Notes under the pieces: model-generated
Databases searched by the model: none
What the model saw: only the letters and a program-made list of their open reading frames with translations
Told to the model about the DNA's origin: nothing
Shown: positions 4,316 through 50,954 of the stretch, in pieces
Layout of the letters: every line of letters starts with the position of its first letter
Numbering within the stretch: position 1 is the first letter of the stretch
Origin: an uncultured PS1 clade bacterium
GTDB lineage: Bacteria; Pseudomonadota; Alphaproteobacteria; MED-G09
Direction: 5' to 3'
Length of the DNA: 64,000 bases
Assembly: GCA_902533755.1 (NCBI GenBank)
Contig: CACANC010000001.1
Span: forward strand, 3,668 to 67,667
Made by a program: the position numbers and the translations under genes

Positions 4316-5362
4316 TTGAAAAAATATTTGAATTTTCTTAGTTCTGATTTGGCTATAGATTTAGGTACAGTCAATACACTTATCCATCATCATGATAATG
4401 GAATAATTTTAAATGAACCGTCAATTTTGGCTGTGGATAAAGCAGATTTAAATATGGGTATAATTGCCATTGGGTCAAAAGCGAAAGAGATGCATGGCAG
4501 AACACCAGAAAACATTGAAACCATAAAACCAATGCGTGAAGGAATAATTGCTGATTATTTAGCTGCTGAAGAAATGCTAAAATATTTTATAAGCAAATCC
4601 TTATTAAATAAGAGCCTTTTTAGCCCTAGATTAATGATATGTGTTCCTGCAAGCTCTACTCCCGCTGAAAGAAAAGCTATTTTGGACTCTGGTTTAGCTA
4701 CTGGAGCTAGAAAAGTTTTTTTAATTGAAGAACCTATGGCTGCAGCTATAGGATCCGATCTCCCAGTTAATGAAGCAAAAGGCTCAATGATAATTGATAT
4801 AGGTGGGGGAACTACTGAAATTGCAATAATATCTCTTGGTGGAATAGTTTTTTCTAAGTCTATTAGAGTTGGTGGAAATGAATTTGATAAATCAATCATC
4901 TCTAATTTAAGAAGAAATGAAAATATCCAAATTGGTGAGATTACAGCAGAACAACTTAAAATACACATTGGTTCAGGGATTGTTCCCAAACATGGTGATG
5001 GAAGAAAGATGACAATAAAAGGTAAAGAGATAACAGAAGGAGTCCCAGTAGAGAAAGAAATTACTGAGAGACATATTTCCGAAAGCTTAGCCGAGGCATT
5101 ATTTGAAATTACAGAGACTATTAAGGAAGCATTTGAATCAGCTCCACCAGAATTAACTGGTGATATTTATGAGAATGGCATCCTTTTAACTGGTGGAGGT
5201 TCATTATTAGACAACATGGATGTAGTTATTGAGCGCGCAACAGGCCTGAAAGTAAAATATGCTGAAGAACCTTTATCAAGTGTAGCTTTAGGGTCAGGCA
5301 AAGTGATGAAAAATATAAAGACGATGAGAGATACATTAAGCACACCTTATGGCAGGCATTAA
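4316..5362 (+). CDS. mreB: Rod-shape-determining actin homolog MreB
   Basis: 348 aa. N-terminal DLAIDLGTVNTLI and actin-fold phosphate loops (IIDIGGGTTE). Confidence 0.9.
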   Translation: MKKYLNFLSSDLAIDLGTVNTLIHHHDNGIILNEPSILAVDKADLNMGIIAIGSKAKEMHGRTPENIETIKPMREGIIADYLAAEEMLKYFISKSLLNKSLFSPRLMICVPASSTPAERKAILDSGLATGARKVFLIEEPMAAAIGSDLPVNEAKGSMIIDIGGGTTEIAIISLGGIVFSKSIRVGGNEFDKSIISNLRRNENIQIGEITAEQLKIHIGSGIVPKHGDGRKMTIKGKEITEGVPVEKEITERHISESLAEALFEITETIKEAFESAPPELTGDIYENGILLTGGGSLLDNMDVVIERATGLKVKYAEEPLSSVALGSGKVMKNIKTMRDTLSTPYGRH

Positions 5363-40416: not shown

Positions 40417-40504
40417 GCGGACATGGTGGAATTGGTAGACACATCAGACTTAAAATCTGAAGGAGATTATCTCCGTCCCGGTTCGAGTCCGGGTGTCCGC
40501 ACCA
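40417..40504 (+). tRNA. tRNA-Leu (anticodon UAA), class II with long variable arm
   Basis: Folded by hand. 7-bp acceptor stem gcggaca/tgtccgc, 3-bp D stem, anticodon stem tcaga/tctga with loop cuUAAaa, variable arm ggaga-ttat-ctcc, T arm cccgg-ttcgagt-ccggg, and encoded CCA. Confidence 0.85.
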
Positions 40505-46326: not shown

Positions 46327-47694
46327 ATGGAAATTCGATTATATAACTCAAAAAGTAAGAAAAAAGAGATATTTCATCCTCTTGATGATGAAAATGTGAC
46401 TATGTATGTATGTGGCCCGACAGTTTATGGGTCACATCATATTGGCAATGCAAGACCAGCGGTAGTTTTTGATGTATTGGCAAAATTACTAAGAAATAAA
46501 TATAAAAATGTGACATATGCAAGAAACATAACTGATATTGATGATAAAATAATAAATGCTGCTTTAGAGCAAAATGTTGAAATATCTGAAATTACTAAGA
46601 AATCTACAAATCAATATCATTCAGATATGAAAATTTTGAATGTTGAAGAACCTAATAGGGAGCCTTATGCAACACAATTTATTTCTGAGATGATTTTATT
46701 TATTGAGGATCTAATAAAAAAAGATAATGCATACCTTTCTGAAGGACATGTGTTATTTAATATTGATTCTTATAAATCATATGGTGATTTATCTAGCAGA
46801 GATCCTAAAGATATGATTGCAGGCTCAAGAGTTGAAGTTCAAGATTACAAAAAAAATCCTTTAGATTTTGTTTTGTGGAAACCTTCTAATGAAAATGAGA
46901 TTGGCTGGAACAGTCCTTGGGGAAGAGGGCGACCAGGATGGCACCTAGAATGCTCAACTATGATTCTAGAGATATTTGGAAAAACTATAGATATTCATGG
47001 TGGAGGTGAAGATTTAAGGTTTCCTCATCATGAAAATGAGTGCGCGCAGTCATTTTGTAGAAATGATGGTAAGCAATTAGCAAATTTTTGGTTACATAAT
47101 GGAATGGTTCAAATGGCAGACTCCAAAATGTCTAAATCTCTTGGAAATATTATTTTAATTAAAGATTTAATTAACGATATGCCCGGAGAAGTAATAAGGT
47201 TATCTTTAATGAGTTCTCATTATAGACAGCCTTTAAAGTGGTCAGATGAATTAGTTAATCAATCAAAAAAAACATTAGATACTTTTTATTCATTCTTAGA
47301 ACAGTATGAGGATGTTGATATTATCGATGCTAAAATTAATGAAGAAATTCTTACTTCTTTATCTGATGACATTAATACACCAAAAGCAATATCAGTTCTG
47401 CATTCAATATTTAAAGATCTAAAAAAAGATTCTGACAATATTGAGTTAAGGAGCTCATTTATTAAATCTGCCAACTTTATGGGGCTTTTATTTTCAAAGC
47501 CAAGTAATTGGTTATTAAAAGAAGATAATAATGTTGATACAAAAGTAATTGATGGGCTAATTAAAGAAAGAAATCAAGCAAGGCAATCTAAAGATTTTTC
47601 AGCTGCGGATAAAATAAGAAATAAACTTTTAGATATGGGTGTAGTGCTTGAAGATAAGAATGATATTACTACTTGGAAGAAAAAAAATGATTAA
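46327..47694 (+). CDS. cysS: Cysteine-tRNA ligase
   Basis: 455 aa. HIGH (HIGNAR) and KMSKS motifs, plus Zn-binding Cys. Confidence 0.92.
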   Translation: MEIRLYNSKSKKKEIFHPLDDENVTMYVCGPTVYGSHHIGNARPAVVFDVLAKLLRNKYKNVTYARNITDIDDKIINAALEQNVEISEITKKSTNQYHSDMKILNVEEPNREPYATQFISEMILFIEDLIKKDNAYLSEGHVLFNIDSYKSYGDLSSRDPKDMIAGSRVEVQDYKKNPLDFVLWKPSNENEIGWNSPWGRGRPGWHLECSTMILEIFGKTIDIHGGGEDLRFPHHENECAQSFCRNDGKQLANFWLHNGMVQMADSKMSKSLGNIILIKDLINDMPGEVIRLSLMSSHYRQPLKWSDELVNQSKKTLDTFYSFLEQYEDVDIIDAKINEEILTSLSDDINTPKAISVLHSIFKDLKKDSDNIELRSSFIKSANFMGLLFSKPSNWLLKEDNNVDTKVIDGLIKERNQARQSKDFSAADKIRNKLLDMGVVLEDKNDITTWKKKND

Positions 47695-48109
47695 GGATTT
47701 ATACAATACAAATATTTTAAGGTTATCATCAGATATCCCTAGATTAGGAAAGCTTGATAAACCACATTCTTCCTCTACGGTAGTAAGTAAATTATGTGGT
47801 TCTAAAATTACCGTTTATTTAAATATGGAAGATAATATTGTAAATGATTTTACCCATGAAATTAAAGCTTGTTCTCTTGGTAAGGCAGCATCCTCAGTTA
47901 TGGCAAGAAATATAATAGGATCAGGTTCAAAAGAGCTCTTAGAAATAAAAAAAGAAATGTACAATATGCTAAAGGAAAATGGTGCCCCTCCATCTGGAAA
48001 ATGGGAAGATTTGAAATATTTTGAACCAGTTAAGGACTTTAAAGGAAGGCATGCATCTGTTTTATTGGTTTTCGATGCTGTTGAAAATTGTATAAATGAG
48101 TTAAAATAA
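47687..48109 (+). CDS. NifU/IscU-like Fe-S cluster scaffold-domain protein
   Basis: Start placed at MIKDLYN, overlapping the cysS 3' end. Conserved Cys contexts LCGS, KACSLGKAASS and ENC resemble the NifU N-terminal scaffold fold. Confidence 0.55.
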   Translation: MIKDLYNTNILRLSSDIPRLGKLDKPHSSSTVVSKLCGSKITVYLNMEDNIVNDFTHEIKACSLGKAASSVMARNIIGSGSKELLEIKKEMYNMLKENGAPPSGKWEDLKYFEPVKDFKGRHASVLLVFDAVENCINELK

Positions 48110-48349
48110 AAAAAGGGAGCTTTCATCAAGCTCCCTTTAGTTTGACTTAACCGCCCCCGATTAAACCATGATCTTCCGCTACCTTTCTTCAGTGCTCCTT
48201 CTTTTTCAAGACCAGCTTCCTGTTTCTGGCTGGTTTCTATCCAGATATTTCTATCTTTCTTTTCACCATGGATCTTATACCATTCGATCCTCACTGCGGC
48301 TTCTCACCCGCCCATCGGTCATTGGTCATTGCGACCGACAATTAGATTA
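48104..48349 (-). ncRNA. Candidate small RNA, copy A of a paralogous pair (~245 nt, unknown family)
   Basis: Minus-strand σ70-like promoter: -35 TTGATT (48379-48384), -10 TTTAAT (48356-48361), 17-bp spacer. Conserved core gtcggtcgcaatgaccaatg.... Ends in the hairpin gggagctt-gatg-aagctccc plus a U-tract. About 78% identical to copy B on the opposite strand. Confidence 0.5.
48112..48138. terminator. Bidirectional intrinsic terminator (GC hairpin; strong U-tract on the minus strand)
   Basis: Hairpin aaagggagc-tttcatcaa-gctcccttt. On the minus strand it is followed by UUUUUAUUUU. It also sits 3 nt after the NifU-like gene stop on the plus strand. Confidence 0.65.
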
Positions 48350-48383
48350 AAACATAATTATGGATCACAATCAATTATCAAAA

Positions 48384-48412
48384 GTCATTTAGTTGTGGAT
48401 AACTTCATTTTT
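48384..48412 (-). promoter_or_regulatory. Two perfect DnaA boxes (TTATCCACA), direct repeats 20 bp apart
   Basis: tgtggataa at 48384-48392 and 48404-48412 on the plus strand, so TTATCCACA on the minus strand. Located between the thrS stop and the copy-A promoter. Confidence 0.55.
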
Positions 48413-48432
48413 CTGTGGATAAAATAAATTGA

Positions 48433-50343
48433 TCAACTATCTGGTGCAGCAGTTTCTTTAAGAATCAAATCTATACTATCTTGTATGCTAAGTATTTCTT
48501 GTTTTTCTGAGCCAAGTTTTCTGATTGCGACAGTTCCATCATTCATCTCATTAACTCCAACAACAAAAATAAAAGGTATTTTATTTACCGAATGTTCTCG
48601 AACTTTATAATTAATTTTTTCGTTTCGAGAATCTAAAATAACCCTTATTCCTTTTTCTATAAATTTTTCTTCTATCTTATGAGCATATTTATCTGCTTTA
48701 GATGTTATAGTAGCAACCACCACTTGGATTGGAGCTAACCAAACAGGGAACCTTCCTTCATAATGCTCAATTAAAATACCTGTAAATCTCTCTAAACTTC
48801 CTAAAATAGCACGATGAAGCATAACGGGCGTATGTTTTTCATTATCTTCTCCAATATAATTTGCCCTCAATCTTCCTGGCATATTAAAATCAACCTGTAA
48901 TGTTCCACATTGCCATTTTCTACCAATAGCATCGTGAAGATAAAAATCTAACTTCGGTCCATAAAAAGCGCCATCTCCATTATTTATATCAAAGGGTATG
49001 CCTGTTGCTTTAGACGCATTCAAAAGTGCATTTTCAGCTTTATCCCAGATCTCATCTTTACCTACCCTTTGGTCTGGCCTATCAGCATACATTATTGAAA
49101 CCTCTTCAAAACCCAATTCACTATATACATCCTGAAGCAGTTTACAAAAACTTATAGTTTCACTCTCTATTTGATCTTCGGTGCAGAAAATATGCGCATC
49201 ATCTTGAACAAAATTCCTAACCCTCATTAAACCATGCAGTGCACCAGATGGCTCATTACGATGGCATGAACCAAATTCTGCCATTCTCAGTGGAAGATCT
49301 TTATAGCTTTTTATACCTTGATTATATATTTGAACATGGCCTGGGCAGTTCATAGGTTTAATCATCAATTCTCTATCATCAATAATTGTTTTATACATAT
49401 TATCTTTGTATTTATCCCAATGACCTGACTCAACCCATAAATCTTTATCTAAAATTTGCGGTGTTTTGATTTCTTTATATCCTTCTTTTGAAATTTTTCT
49501 TCGAATATAGTCTTCCAACTCTTTATAAATTGACCAACCATTTGCATGCCAAAAAACCATACCAGGTGCAATGTCTTGAAAGTGGAAAAGGTCTAACTCT
49601 TTTCCAATTTTTCTGTGATCTCTTTTCTCTGCTTCCTCAAGAAGAATAAGATGTTTTTTTAACTCTTTTTCAGATGCCCACGCGGTTCCATATACTCTTT
49701 GAAGCATTTTATTATCAGAGCTACCCCTCCAATATGCTCCAGCAATTTTTGTTAATTTAAAAGCTTTTAAGTGCCTAACTGATGTAACATGAGGGCCTCT
49801 ACACATATCAATATATTCATTATGATGATATAGGGCTATAATCTCATCATTGGGAATTTCATTAATTATTTCAACTTTATAAGGTTCATTTCTTTTCTCA
49901 AATGTATCAAGCGCCTTTTTTCTTGTTACAACTTCTCTAACAACACCATAATTTGTTTGAGCTAATTCTTTCATTCTTAACTCAATTTTTTCTAAATCAT
50001 TCTCACTTAATGACTCCTCAAGATCAATATCGTAATAGAAACCATTTTCTATAGTTGGTCCTATAGCCATTTTTGCTTTAGGATATAATTGTTTTAAAGC
50101 ATGGCCAAACAAATGGGCACATGAATGCCTAATTATCTCTATTCCATCTTCATCACTATTTGTGATTAAAACTACATCAGAATCTGCTTCAATTAGCTCT
50201 GATGCATCTACAATTTTTCCATTAAGCATACCAGCAACAGTTGCTTTAGCTAATCCCGATCCAATTGAAGATGCAAGTTCATCAAAATTAATTGGCTTAT
50301 CGAATTCTTTTACTGATCCATCTGGTAATTTTATTTTTGGCAT
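48433..50343 (-). CDS. thrS: Threonine-tRNA ligase
   Basis: 636 aa. TGS domain, class II aaRS core, Zn-binding editing motifs and anticodon-binding domain. Confidence 0.93.
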
Positions 50344-50345
50344 AA

Positions 50346-50591
50346 CTAATTATTTATCTTCTTTTTAATAGGAACTGGATCATATCCATAACCACCCCAA
50401 GGATTACATTTTATAATACGAATAAAGGATAATTTAAAACCATGAAAAAATCCATGTTTTGAAAAAGCTTCCATTGCATAAGATGAACATGAAGGCTCAA
50501 ATCTACAAGACTTACCTAAAAAAGGTGATATTAAATATTTGTACCCCCTGATTAATATAATACATATTTTACTTGCTATACCCATAACCAT
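50346..50591 (-). CDS. yidD: Membrane protein insertion efficiency factor YidD
   Basis: 81 aa. [28 protein letters not shown] is the canonical YidD sequence. Confidence 0.85.
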
Positions 50592-50624
50592 AAAATTAAT
50601 AAGTTATTTATATGCTATAAATTA

Positions 50625-50653
50625 ATTTGTTATTTTATCCACAGAAAAATTGA
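50625..50653 (+). promoter_or_regulatory. Two perfect DnaA boxes (TTATCCACA), direct repeats 20 bp apart
   Basis: ttatccaca at 50625-50633 and 50645-50653. Located 34-62 bp upstream of the yidD start and upstream of the copy-B promoter. Confidence 0.55.
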
Positions 50654-50708
50654 GTTATCCACAAAAAAATAATGCAGCTGAATTGACCAACACTATTTGC
50701 TATGTCTT

Positions 50709-50950
50709 AATAATTGTGACGGTCGTAATGACCAATGGCCGTTGGGCGGGTGATATGCCGCTGTGAGGGTCGGATGGTCTCCGATCCATGGTGAAAGTAA
50801 AGGTAGCAATATCTTGAGGATAGCCAGCCAAAAGACAGAAAGCTGGTCTGTAAAAGGAAGAAGCGCTGGATTAGGGTAGCGAGATATCAGTCTTAATCGG
50901 GGGCGATTAAGTCACACTAAAAGGGAGCTCGATGTGGGTTCCCTTTTTTT
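50709..50950 (+). ncRNA. Candidate small RNA, copy B of the paralogous pair (~240 nt, unknown family)
   Basis: -35 TTGACC (50673-50678), 17-bp spacer, -10 CTTAAT/TAATAAT. Conserved core gacggtcgtaatgaccaatgg.... Conserved internal stem ccagc...gctgg with a variable loop in both copies. Ends in a 10-bp hairpin plus U9. Confidence 0.5.
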
Positions 50951-50954
50951 TTAA
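50921..50954 (+). terminator. Intrinsic terminator (10-bp stem with two G·U pairs, followed by T9)
   Basis: aagggagctc-gatgt-gggttccctt then ttttttttt. Relative to copy A, a t→c change is paired with an a→g change in the stem, which is compensatory. Confidence 0.7.

Follow-up and report, generated by a model that had tools for sequence, protein, structure and literature searches.

Why should a bacterial chromosome carry perfect binding sites for the replication initiator DnaA, in regularly spaced pairs, on both sides of two housekeeping genes? The question is raised by a stretch of 64,000 nucleotides (nt) from an uncultured bacterium of the PS1 clade (contig CACANC010000001.1 of assembly GCA_902533755.1), which we call the window, and where four copies of TTATCCACA, the consensus high-affinity DnaA box, flank the genes thrS and yidD. 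As a transcription factor, DnaA is known to act on a modest set of genes that code for proteins. A comparison of this locus with its relatives makes it rather likely that the boxes are something different in kind of target, namely the upstream control element of a structured non-coding RNA (ncRNA) gene whose transcription DnaA would modulate. The hosts are widespread marine bacteria, all represented here by assemblies of single-cell or metagenome origin.

Perfect DnaA boxes in the window

An exact-match scan of the 64 kilobases (kb) returned five perfect TTATCCACA 9-mers where 0.70 were expected, and none of 100 dinucleotide-preserving shuffles of the window reached five. Four of them form two same-orientation pairs with a start-to-start spacing of exactly 20 base pairs (bp), and each of these four matches the consensus of the R-type high-affinity DnaA box at 9 of 9 positions:

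50635-50643, + strand: DnaA box B1, distal box of copy B; TTATCCACA followed by an invariant GAAAAAT; exact match, invariant in 32 of 32 distinct units
50655-50663, + strand: DnaA box B2, promoter-proximal box of copy B; exact match, ending 19 nt before the -35 element TTGACC
48414-48422, - strand: DnaA box A1, distal box of copy A; exact match, 10 nt past the thrS stop codon
48394-48402, - strand: DnaA box A2, promoter-proximal box of copy A; exact match

A first-pass annotation of this DNA had already reported four perfect boxes in two 20-bp tandem pairs. Their existence stands, as does their placement beside the genes, with B1 43 nt upstream of the yidD ATG and A1 just past the end of thrS; the coordinates then given were all 10 nt too low.

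When the window was scanned for near-perfect tandem pairs, only these two were found, and one-mismatch boxes occur in it at chance level (21 against 21.7 expected). The fifth perfect copy lies at 4432-4440 on the - strand, inside an mreB-like open reading frame (ORF; 4316-5362, named by reading the sequence), with a single 2-mismatch site 23 bp away as its only partner, and looks like a chance occurrence. At the 3′ end of cysS, CTGCGGATAAAATAA (47603-47617) matches the flank of box 1 of copy A at 14 of 15 positions and includes the 1-mismatch box TTATCCGCA; it is present just in the window and in one relative (L042) among the loci covering the region, and such a match is within chance expectation for the self-comparison of 5 kb of AT-rich DNA.

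One unit, duplicated and inverted

Both pairs are parts of one inverted duplication of about 330 nt around thrS-yidD, with arms at 48108-48427 and 50630-50950. The order within the two arms is the same: two boxes, then some 19 nt of DNA with little conservation, a -35-like TTGAyy, a spacer of 16-18 nt, a -10-like hexamer, an RNA and a strong intrinsic terminator. Between the arms the 41-nt box segment is 90% identical and the RNA segments 76-78%, and the DNA joining box 2 to the RNA about 45%. Since the pairs are paralogous arms, they stand for one evolutionary event and not two, and the window holds four boxes because one unit was duplicated. The earlier argument that two mirrored pairs could not be random is flawed for this reason, and the statistics within the window describe a single pair that was kept twice.

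A structured RNA behind each pair

The segment of about 230 nt that follows each pair has a GC content of 45-52% in a genome of 32%. Judging from its pattern of substitutions, it is the gene of a previously undescribed structured ncRNA:

50720-50952, + strand: ncRNA copy B; covariance-model match of 266.7 bits, fold z-score -4.7
50919-50947 plus T-run, + strand: intrinsic terminator of copy B, from a terminator scan
48106-48337, - strand: ncRNA copy A, a fast-evolving paralogue; covariance-model match of 231.5 bits
48138-48112, - strand: terminator of copy A

The covariance model finds exactly two copies in the window, both of which fold better than shuffled controls (z = -4.7 and -3.0). The underlying alignment, built on 12 homologues and then on 31 (27 of them distinct), yields a consensus structure of 59 pairs in 11 helices, in which 98.1% of the consensus-pair cells are paired and 19 pairs show compensatory changes on both sides, against just 35-50% of cells paired in controls where the 3′ partner was slid by 1-3 columns. 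Copy A keeps 56 of the 59 pairs, and its differences from copy B concentrate in unpaired columns. The many G-U pairs show that the transcribed strand is the one leading away from the boxes. No Rfam 15 family covers the RNA at the gathering threshold, nor was any found at E<=10 for both window copies and two divergent homologues, which makes the RNA a candidate new family, present in some genomes as two diverged paralogues. The sole Rfam match in the window is a transfer RNA (tRNA) of 85 nt with a long variable arm at 40417-40501 (+ strand), presumably tRNA-Leu(UAA) from its anticodon loop CUUAAAA.

A protein-coding role for the region was considered and rejected, as no long ORF is common to all lineages and the antisense stop-free stretch is broken in one group of relatives (that of L012). 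An ORF of 12 codons (MTN-x-RWAG-[DE]-x-P-x-stop; 50729-50767 on the + strand, with an equivalent in copy A) is intact in 27 of the 27 distinct RNAs, and no Shine-Dalgarno sequence is evident before it. It is probably incidental, because the conservation is at the nucleotide level and the ORF overlaps helices P1-P4.

Several loops of the RNA are invariant: AAUGACCAAU, UGGUC and that of a GGGG hairpin. The P1 loop AAUGACCAA (50726-50735) and the P4 loop xUGGUCx (50773-50781), which occupy columns 7-16 and 54-62 of alignment A3 in all homologues, are invariant and mutually complementary (GACCA/UGGUC), with 4 bp only in copy A; this suggests a kissing tertiary contact between the two loops. Alternatively, a UGGU in a loop of about 7 nt beside thrS could mimic the anticodon loop of tRNA-Thr(GGU).

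Conservation of the box pair among relatives

The RNA sequence alone, used as query, retrieved 26 loci from 10 species genomes and 16 metagenome contigs; the genome scan was run with an RNA hairpin pattern and the metagenome scan with a different RNA block, and a further 10 near-identical contigs came from a YidD look-up. The loci from the genome scan belong to single-cell genomes and metagenome-assembled genomes labelled PS1 clade, OCS116 cluster, Rhodobiaceae, Alphaproteobacteria or Pseudomonadota, and the RNA was found only in this marine PS1/OCS116/“Rhodobiaceae” alphaproteobacterial group. A perfect TTATCCACA pair lies directly upstream of every RNA copy retrieved, with a spacing of 20 bp, or 21 bp in one subgroup, and none of the loci retrieved keeps the RNA without perfect boxes. 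Clade DNA totalling 297 kb contains 81 perfect boxes, namely 40 pairs and the one in the mreB-like ORF, and the match to TTATCCACA is 9 of 9 in 80 of the 80 boxes of the 40 clade units. The motif is not a common one, and the two checks proposed along with the first-pass annotation, on the frequency of the motif and on the loss of the boxes in relatives that keep the RNA, both left its claim of a specific role unrefuted.

The boxes are also the best conserved part of the unit, as seen from the mean pairwise identity when 32 distinct units are aligned:

60 nt upstream of box 1: identity 0.59
The two boxes: identity 1.0
Inter-box spacer, in which GAAAAAT is invariant: identity 0.78
Box 2 to the -35 element: identity 0.55
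-35 element to the RNA: identity 0.51
RNA: identity 0.78

These values bear on the simplest explanation of all, that the boxes are functionless, a chance sequence carried along with the duplication. The four boxes of the window do reduce to one ancestral pair, so that statistics computed within the window overstate their singularity. However, 18 of 18 box positions are invariant in the 32 distinct units while the adjacent non-coding DNA is 50-59% identical, and at about 0.5 identity per site, 18 matches between two lineages would be expected with a probability of roughly 4e-6, as a rough estimate. This pattern of conservation effectively refutes an absence of function, which we regard as scarcely credible.

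Which gene the boxes belong to

If the boxes are functional, they could serve either of the two transcription units that they separate. Three features on the yidD side enter into this question:

48433-50343, - strand: thrS, threonyl-tRNA synthetase (ThrRS); Pfam TGS, tRNA_SAD, tRNA-synt_2b and HGTP_anticodon; an inverted passenger between the units
50346-50591, - strand: yidD; Pfam YidD; divergent from RNA copy B
50615-50622, + strand: conserved block CTATAAAT, which the strand of yidD reads as ATTTATAG; always 13 nt away from box 1 where the unit adjoins yidD

Most relatives hold one unit, in the order cysS> nifU> <RNA (boxes) yidD> thrS> <CoA-transferase. A second order, nifU> <RNA-A (boxes) <thrS <yidD (boxes) RNA-B> <CoA-transferase, occurs in the window and in six other loci (L002, L003, L025, L037, L041 and L042). 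By this comparison, the single unit between nifU and yidD is the ancestral layout, and the window is derived by duplication and inversion; a palindromic duplication of the RNA-boxes-yidD-thrS block and the later loss of one of the two yidD-thrS copies would account for its arrangement. There is no sign of ongoing flipping, all two-copy loci fetched sharing one orientation. The single-copy orthologues share about 90% identity with copy B and about 77% with copy A, and six of the six distinct A-type sequences keep both boxes perfect.

The boxes might primarily control the divergent yidD-thrS, thereby coupling the synthesis of ThrRS and YidD to replication, with the link to the RNA being an incidental result of the shared intergenic region. 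In the ancestral arrangement box 1 indeed lies 43-51 nt upstream of the yidD start codon, and the fixed 13 nt between box 1 and CTATAAAT/ATTTATAG would make the boxes overlap or abut the -35 region of a yidD promoter. A promoter scan also proposes TGGATA, 18 nt and TAAAAT, made of the boxes themselves and pointing towards yidD. The CTATAAAT block is invariant next to yidD (e.g., in L011, L012, L014, L023 and L030) and absent from copy A, and is probably part of the yidD-side promoter.

We nevertheless hold it unlikely that yidD-thrS is the primary target, and three observations argue that the boxes belong to the RNA gene. First, copy A lies downstream of thrS with no yidD alongside and has nothing but the RNA to drive, yet its boxes are perfect. 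Second, the distance from the boxes to the yidD start varies by up to 8 nt among units, whereas that to the RNA promoter stays within 1 nt or shifts by roughly one turn of the helix: the gap separating box 2 from the conserved -35 TTGAC measures 19 nt in most units and 18 nt in L032, and 28 nt only in the subgroup with the 21-bp box spacing. The 28 nt and the 21 bp together displace box 1 by 10 bp, one helical turn, relative to the promoter. Third, a syntenic outgroup without the RNA is also without the boxes.

This outgroup consists of three loci labelled “Hyphomicrobiales bacterium” (L043-45), whose ThrS is 71% identical and where the nifU stop abuts or overlaps the yidD start. It was found with a divergent YidD query, the ThrS protein search having given relatives at >=93% identity only; two other YidD matches were discarded as outgroups, being unrelated rpmH-rnpA-yidD loci. 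In L043 (3546-4255), and likewise in L044 and L045, cysS-nifU-yidD-thrS reads as one same-strand array. The covariance model, run with its filters off, detects no RNA in these three loci, and they have no perfect box either. As the outgroup has yidD-thrS in the same synteny but neither RNA nor boxes, the boxes came or went with the RNA gene and are not ancestral to yidD-thrS. The RNA/box module seems to have been inserted into, or lost from, a cysS-nifU-yidD-thrS operon, and yidD-thrS in the module-bearing clade would need a new promoter.

The preference for the RNA gene leaves room for a second role, because the pair, together with CTATAAAT/ATTTATAG at its fixed distance, would overlap the yidD-thrS promoter region: co-regulation of yidD-thrS is plausible as a secondary effect. 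The suggestion made in the first-pass annotation, DnaA-dependent control of the small RNAs and/or yidD-thrS, thus gains comparative support, with the RNA as the putative primary partner.

Two further observations concern the yidD side. On the RNA strand, CTATAAAT reads as an extended -10 element (TGCTATAAAT) pointing into the boxes, the other strand being the yidD promoter region. The yidD ORF has two in-frame ATG codons (MVMG...) at 50583-50591, and most relatives start at the second, so that the true start is probably 50585.

Predicted promoters and a possible mechanism

Between each box pair and its RNA, a promoter can be predicted:

50683-50712, + strand: predicted sigma-70-type promoter of copy B; TTGACC, 17-18 nt, CTTAAT/TTAATA; start predicted near 50719
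48343-48381, - strand: predicted promoter region of copy A; TTGATT at 48374-48369 aligns with the -35 element of the family

The -35 TTGAC is conserved family-wide, and the -10 element of the relatives is TAAAAT or TAGAAT. For copy A, the alignment and a promoter scan give an alternative prediction (TTGATA, 16 nt, AATTAT at 48381-48354), and the predicted promoter is weaker than that of copy B. A 2-mismatch box, TGATCCATA, sits at 48359-48367 (- strand) between the predicted -35 and -10 elements of copy A and is not kept in the other A-type sequences. On reading the intergenic sequence, thrS and copy A have the same orientation and adjoin directly with no terminator between them, so that read-through from thrS may reach copy A too.

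The unit would work as follows. Two perfect same-orientation boxes, two helical turns apart, would precede by 19 nt a sigma-70-like promoter that drives an RNA of about 230 nt ending at an intrinsic terminator; in its ancestral setting the RNA would be convergent with nifU, and the boxes would face yidD-thrS. Two DnaA molecules would occupy the high-affinity boxes, whose centres lie near -60 and -80, from a single face of the helix. With transcription predicted to start near 50719, copy B would have its boxes at about -84 to -76 and -64 to -56, and those of the 21-bp subgroup sit about one turn further upstream, a geometry that would be typical of upstream (class I-like) activators working from one helix face. 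The bound DnaA could then influence RNA polymerase at the promoter of the RNA, with activation from upstream as the most probable mode, and RNA synthesis would thereby follow DnaA abundance and replication status. In the yidD-adjoining units, bound DnaA would in addition abut the yidD-thrS promoter and could co-regulate this operon. Further downstream, the RNA signal might feed back on dnaA, nrd or cell-cycle messenger RNAs, or on translation and membrane insertion linked to ThrRS and YidD. That this RNA is the first complex-folded ncRNA directly commanded by DnaA, acting as a replication-status signal in the abundant marine PS1/OCS116 alphaproteobacteria, is a doubtful extension of the proposal, to which we give little weight.

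Is DnaA the reader of the boxes?

A number of points weigh against DnaA control of the RNA gene. The promoter and transcription start of the RNA are predictions only, the -10 element of copy B is poor, and the sign of the regulation, activation or repression, is not readable from sequence. The spacing of 20 bp is at the short edge of the two-turn class, and among the matches listed in a scan of viral contigs no strong tandem boxes have it. Lastly, the exact module TTATCCACAGAAAAAT-N4-TTATCCACA was found in two unrelated phage contigs with a GC content of 47-49%:

L052, 5540-5569: phage module, matching copy A of the window at 30 of 30 nt
L053, 6801-6829 (L054 is the same sequence): phage module

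In L052 the module lies between a gene for a sigma/ArpU-like regulator and HNH-terminase genes, with three GATGAAACA repeats after it. Because it stands upstream of a late (packaging) operon and beside a phage transcription regulator, a reader other than DnaA is conceivable. A search of a phage collection with the L052 module region gave no match.

Such a reader could be a clade-specific transcription factor, or a protein that arrived with the RNA module, recognizing the 20-bp direct repeat. In its favour, the invariant element exceeds 9 bp (TTATCCACAGAAAAAT), and the phage module recurs once in a typical late-promoter position. Against this, 80 of 80 boxes match the universal DnaA consensus at all nine positions, their flanks show the AG-box-G context that strong DnaA boxes, E. 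coli R4 among them, generally have, and no candidate regulator gene accompanies the module, whose neighbours are housekeeping genes. To our knowledge, DnaA is universal, and recognition by its domain IV is highly conserved. We therefore judge a non-DnaA reader improbable, and DnaA remains the protein that we propose for the RNA gene.

Viral contigs tell more about the architecture itself. In IMG/VR, at least 120 stretches contain same-orientation perfect TTATCCACA pairs with a spacing of exactly 20 bp, and the flank consensus AG-TTATCCACA-G is present in 124 distinct viral tandem pairs among the matches listed (the viral tandem-box loci are L055-L262, and the counts of both scans are to be read as “at least”). 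The spacings of viral tandem GTTATCCACAG cluster, among the matches listed, at 11-13, 21-24 and 31-35 bp, which points to helical phasing, and many of the viral examples have further box-like sequences nearby. Phased tandem boxes are a common architecture. No homologue of the RNA was found in the phage contigs with the module, and three viral-contig matches to the 5′ block of the RNA were set aside as chance, none being confirmed by the covariance model.

DnaA could also bind the pair for a purpose other than transcription, as a titration or datA/DARS-like element that alters how much DnaA is available or its nucleotide state, or as the remnant of an origin. Two consensus boxes do make a high-affinity sink for DnaA, the duplication in the window doubles the sites, and DnaA titration by high-affinity chromosomal boxes has experimental support in E. 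coli (PMC12371093). Yet each unit has two same-orientation boxes only, with no conserved third or auxiliary box found within 1.5 kb of the pair in the clade loci; the syntenic outgroup lacks the intergenic region; and the fixed, helically phased distance to the promoter would be left unexplained. In Alphaproteobacteria, an oriC would combine several clustered boxes with an AT-rich unwinding element at a conserved syntenic site, usually close to hemE or dnaA. An oriC or a relic of one, which the first-pass annotation had offered as an alternative, does not fit, as there is no multi-box cluster, and neither hemE nor dnaA is among the 18 window ORFs scanned with Pfam (the locus neighbours and ten others). 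The GC skew in the window tracks gene orientation, with no switch at the locus, and no 3-nt repeats resembling a DnaA-trio were seen by eye beside the boxes, an unscored inspection. A datA/DARS-type site, with its three or more boxes in a defined arrangement, was likewise dismissed, the pair consisting of exactly two head-to-tail boxes. A non-transcriptional role is in our opinion very unlikely, and control of the RNA gene by DnaA is the reading that we carry into the comparison with known systems.

Comparison with known DnaA-dependent systems

As a cis-element, the pair is a promoter-associated set of DnaA boxes outside oriC, of a kind already known; the novelty lies in its target, a multi-helix RNA as yet unclassified. 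The boxes are placed upstream of a predicted promoter at a conserved distance, as in DnaA-regulated promoters of the nrdAB, dnaA and gcrA type. If DnaA binds them, replication status would be linked to an RNA-based output, and a riboregulator would join a DnaA regulon so far described for protein-coding genes only. An element of 41 bp and an RNA of 230 nt make a small testable system, and the importance of the finding would rise considerably if both DnaA binding and a role of the RNA in replication or cell-cycle control hold.

The closest parallel is nrdAB of E. coli, where DnaA on high-affinity upstream boxes activates by stabilizing RNA polymerase, and a high level of ATP-DnaA represses (PMC8203912). 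Both systems have consensus-type boxes upstream of a sigma-70 promoter (a sigma-70-like one here, and predicted) and outside oriC. On this precedent we propose that DnaA modulates the RNA promoter, most likely positively. The two differ in that the target here is a structured ncRNA and not an enzyme operon, and in that DnaA binding is putative in the present case; moreover, no third, ATP-DnaA-specific box overlapping the promoter is evident here, where the element consists of two perfect 9-mers 20-21 bp apart.

Within the alphaproteobacteria, DnaA of Caulobacter crescentus is a cell-cycle transcription factor that acts through promoter boxes of gcrA, ftsZ, podJ and others (PMC8203912). The targets treated in that review are protein-coding, unlike the ncRNA considered here, and its text mentions no ncRNA target (0 occurrences of ‘sRNA’ or ‘non-coding’). 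Targeted literature searches on small RNAs controlled by DnaA boxes, or on RNAs of PS1/OCS116, found nothing relevant. The Caulobacter ncRNA CcnA is reportedly driven by CtrA and transcribed near the origin. PMC8959179 describes CcnA as an alphaproteobacterial ncRNA tied to a master cell-cycle regulator. The present RNA differs from it in its regulator, which would be DnaA, and in its locus, which is not an origin.

The phage tandem arrays share with our unit the same-orientation perfect pairs 20 bp apart and the AG-box-G flanks; their genomes are unrelated, and the RNA is present here and absent there. Finally, datA, DARS1-2 and the DnaA-box clusters of Bacillus subtilis resemble the pair in being consensus boxes on the chromosome outside oriC. 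Those elements need 3-9 boxes in specific orientations, and datA and DARS2 also need IHF; DARS is built on a head-to-head core, and datA on boxes 2, 3 and 7 plus an IHF site. In contrast to all of them, the element described here consists of exactly two head-to-tail boxes locked to the predicted promoter of an RNA gene.

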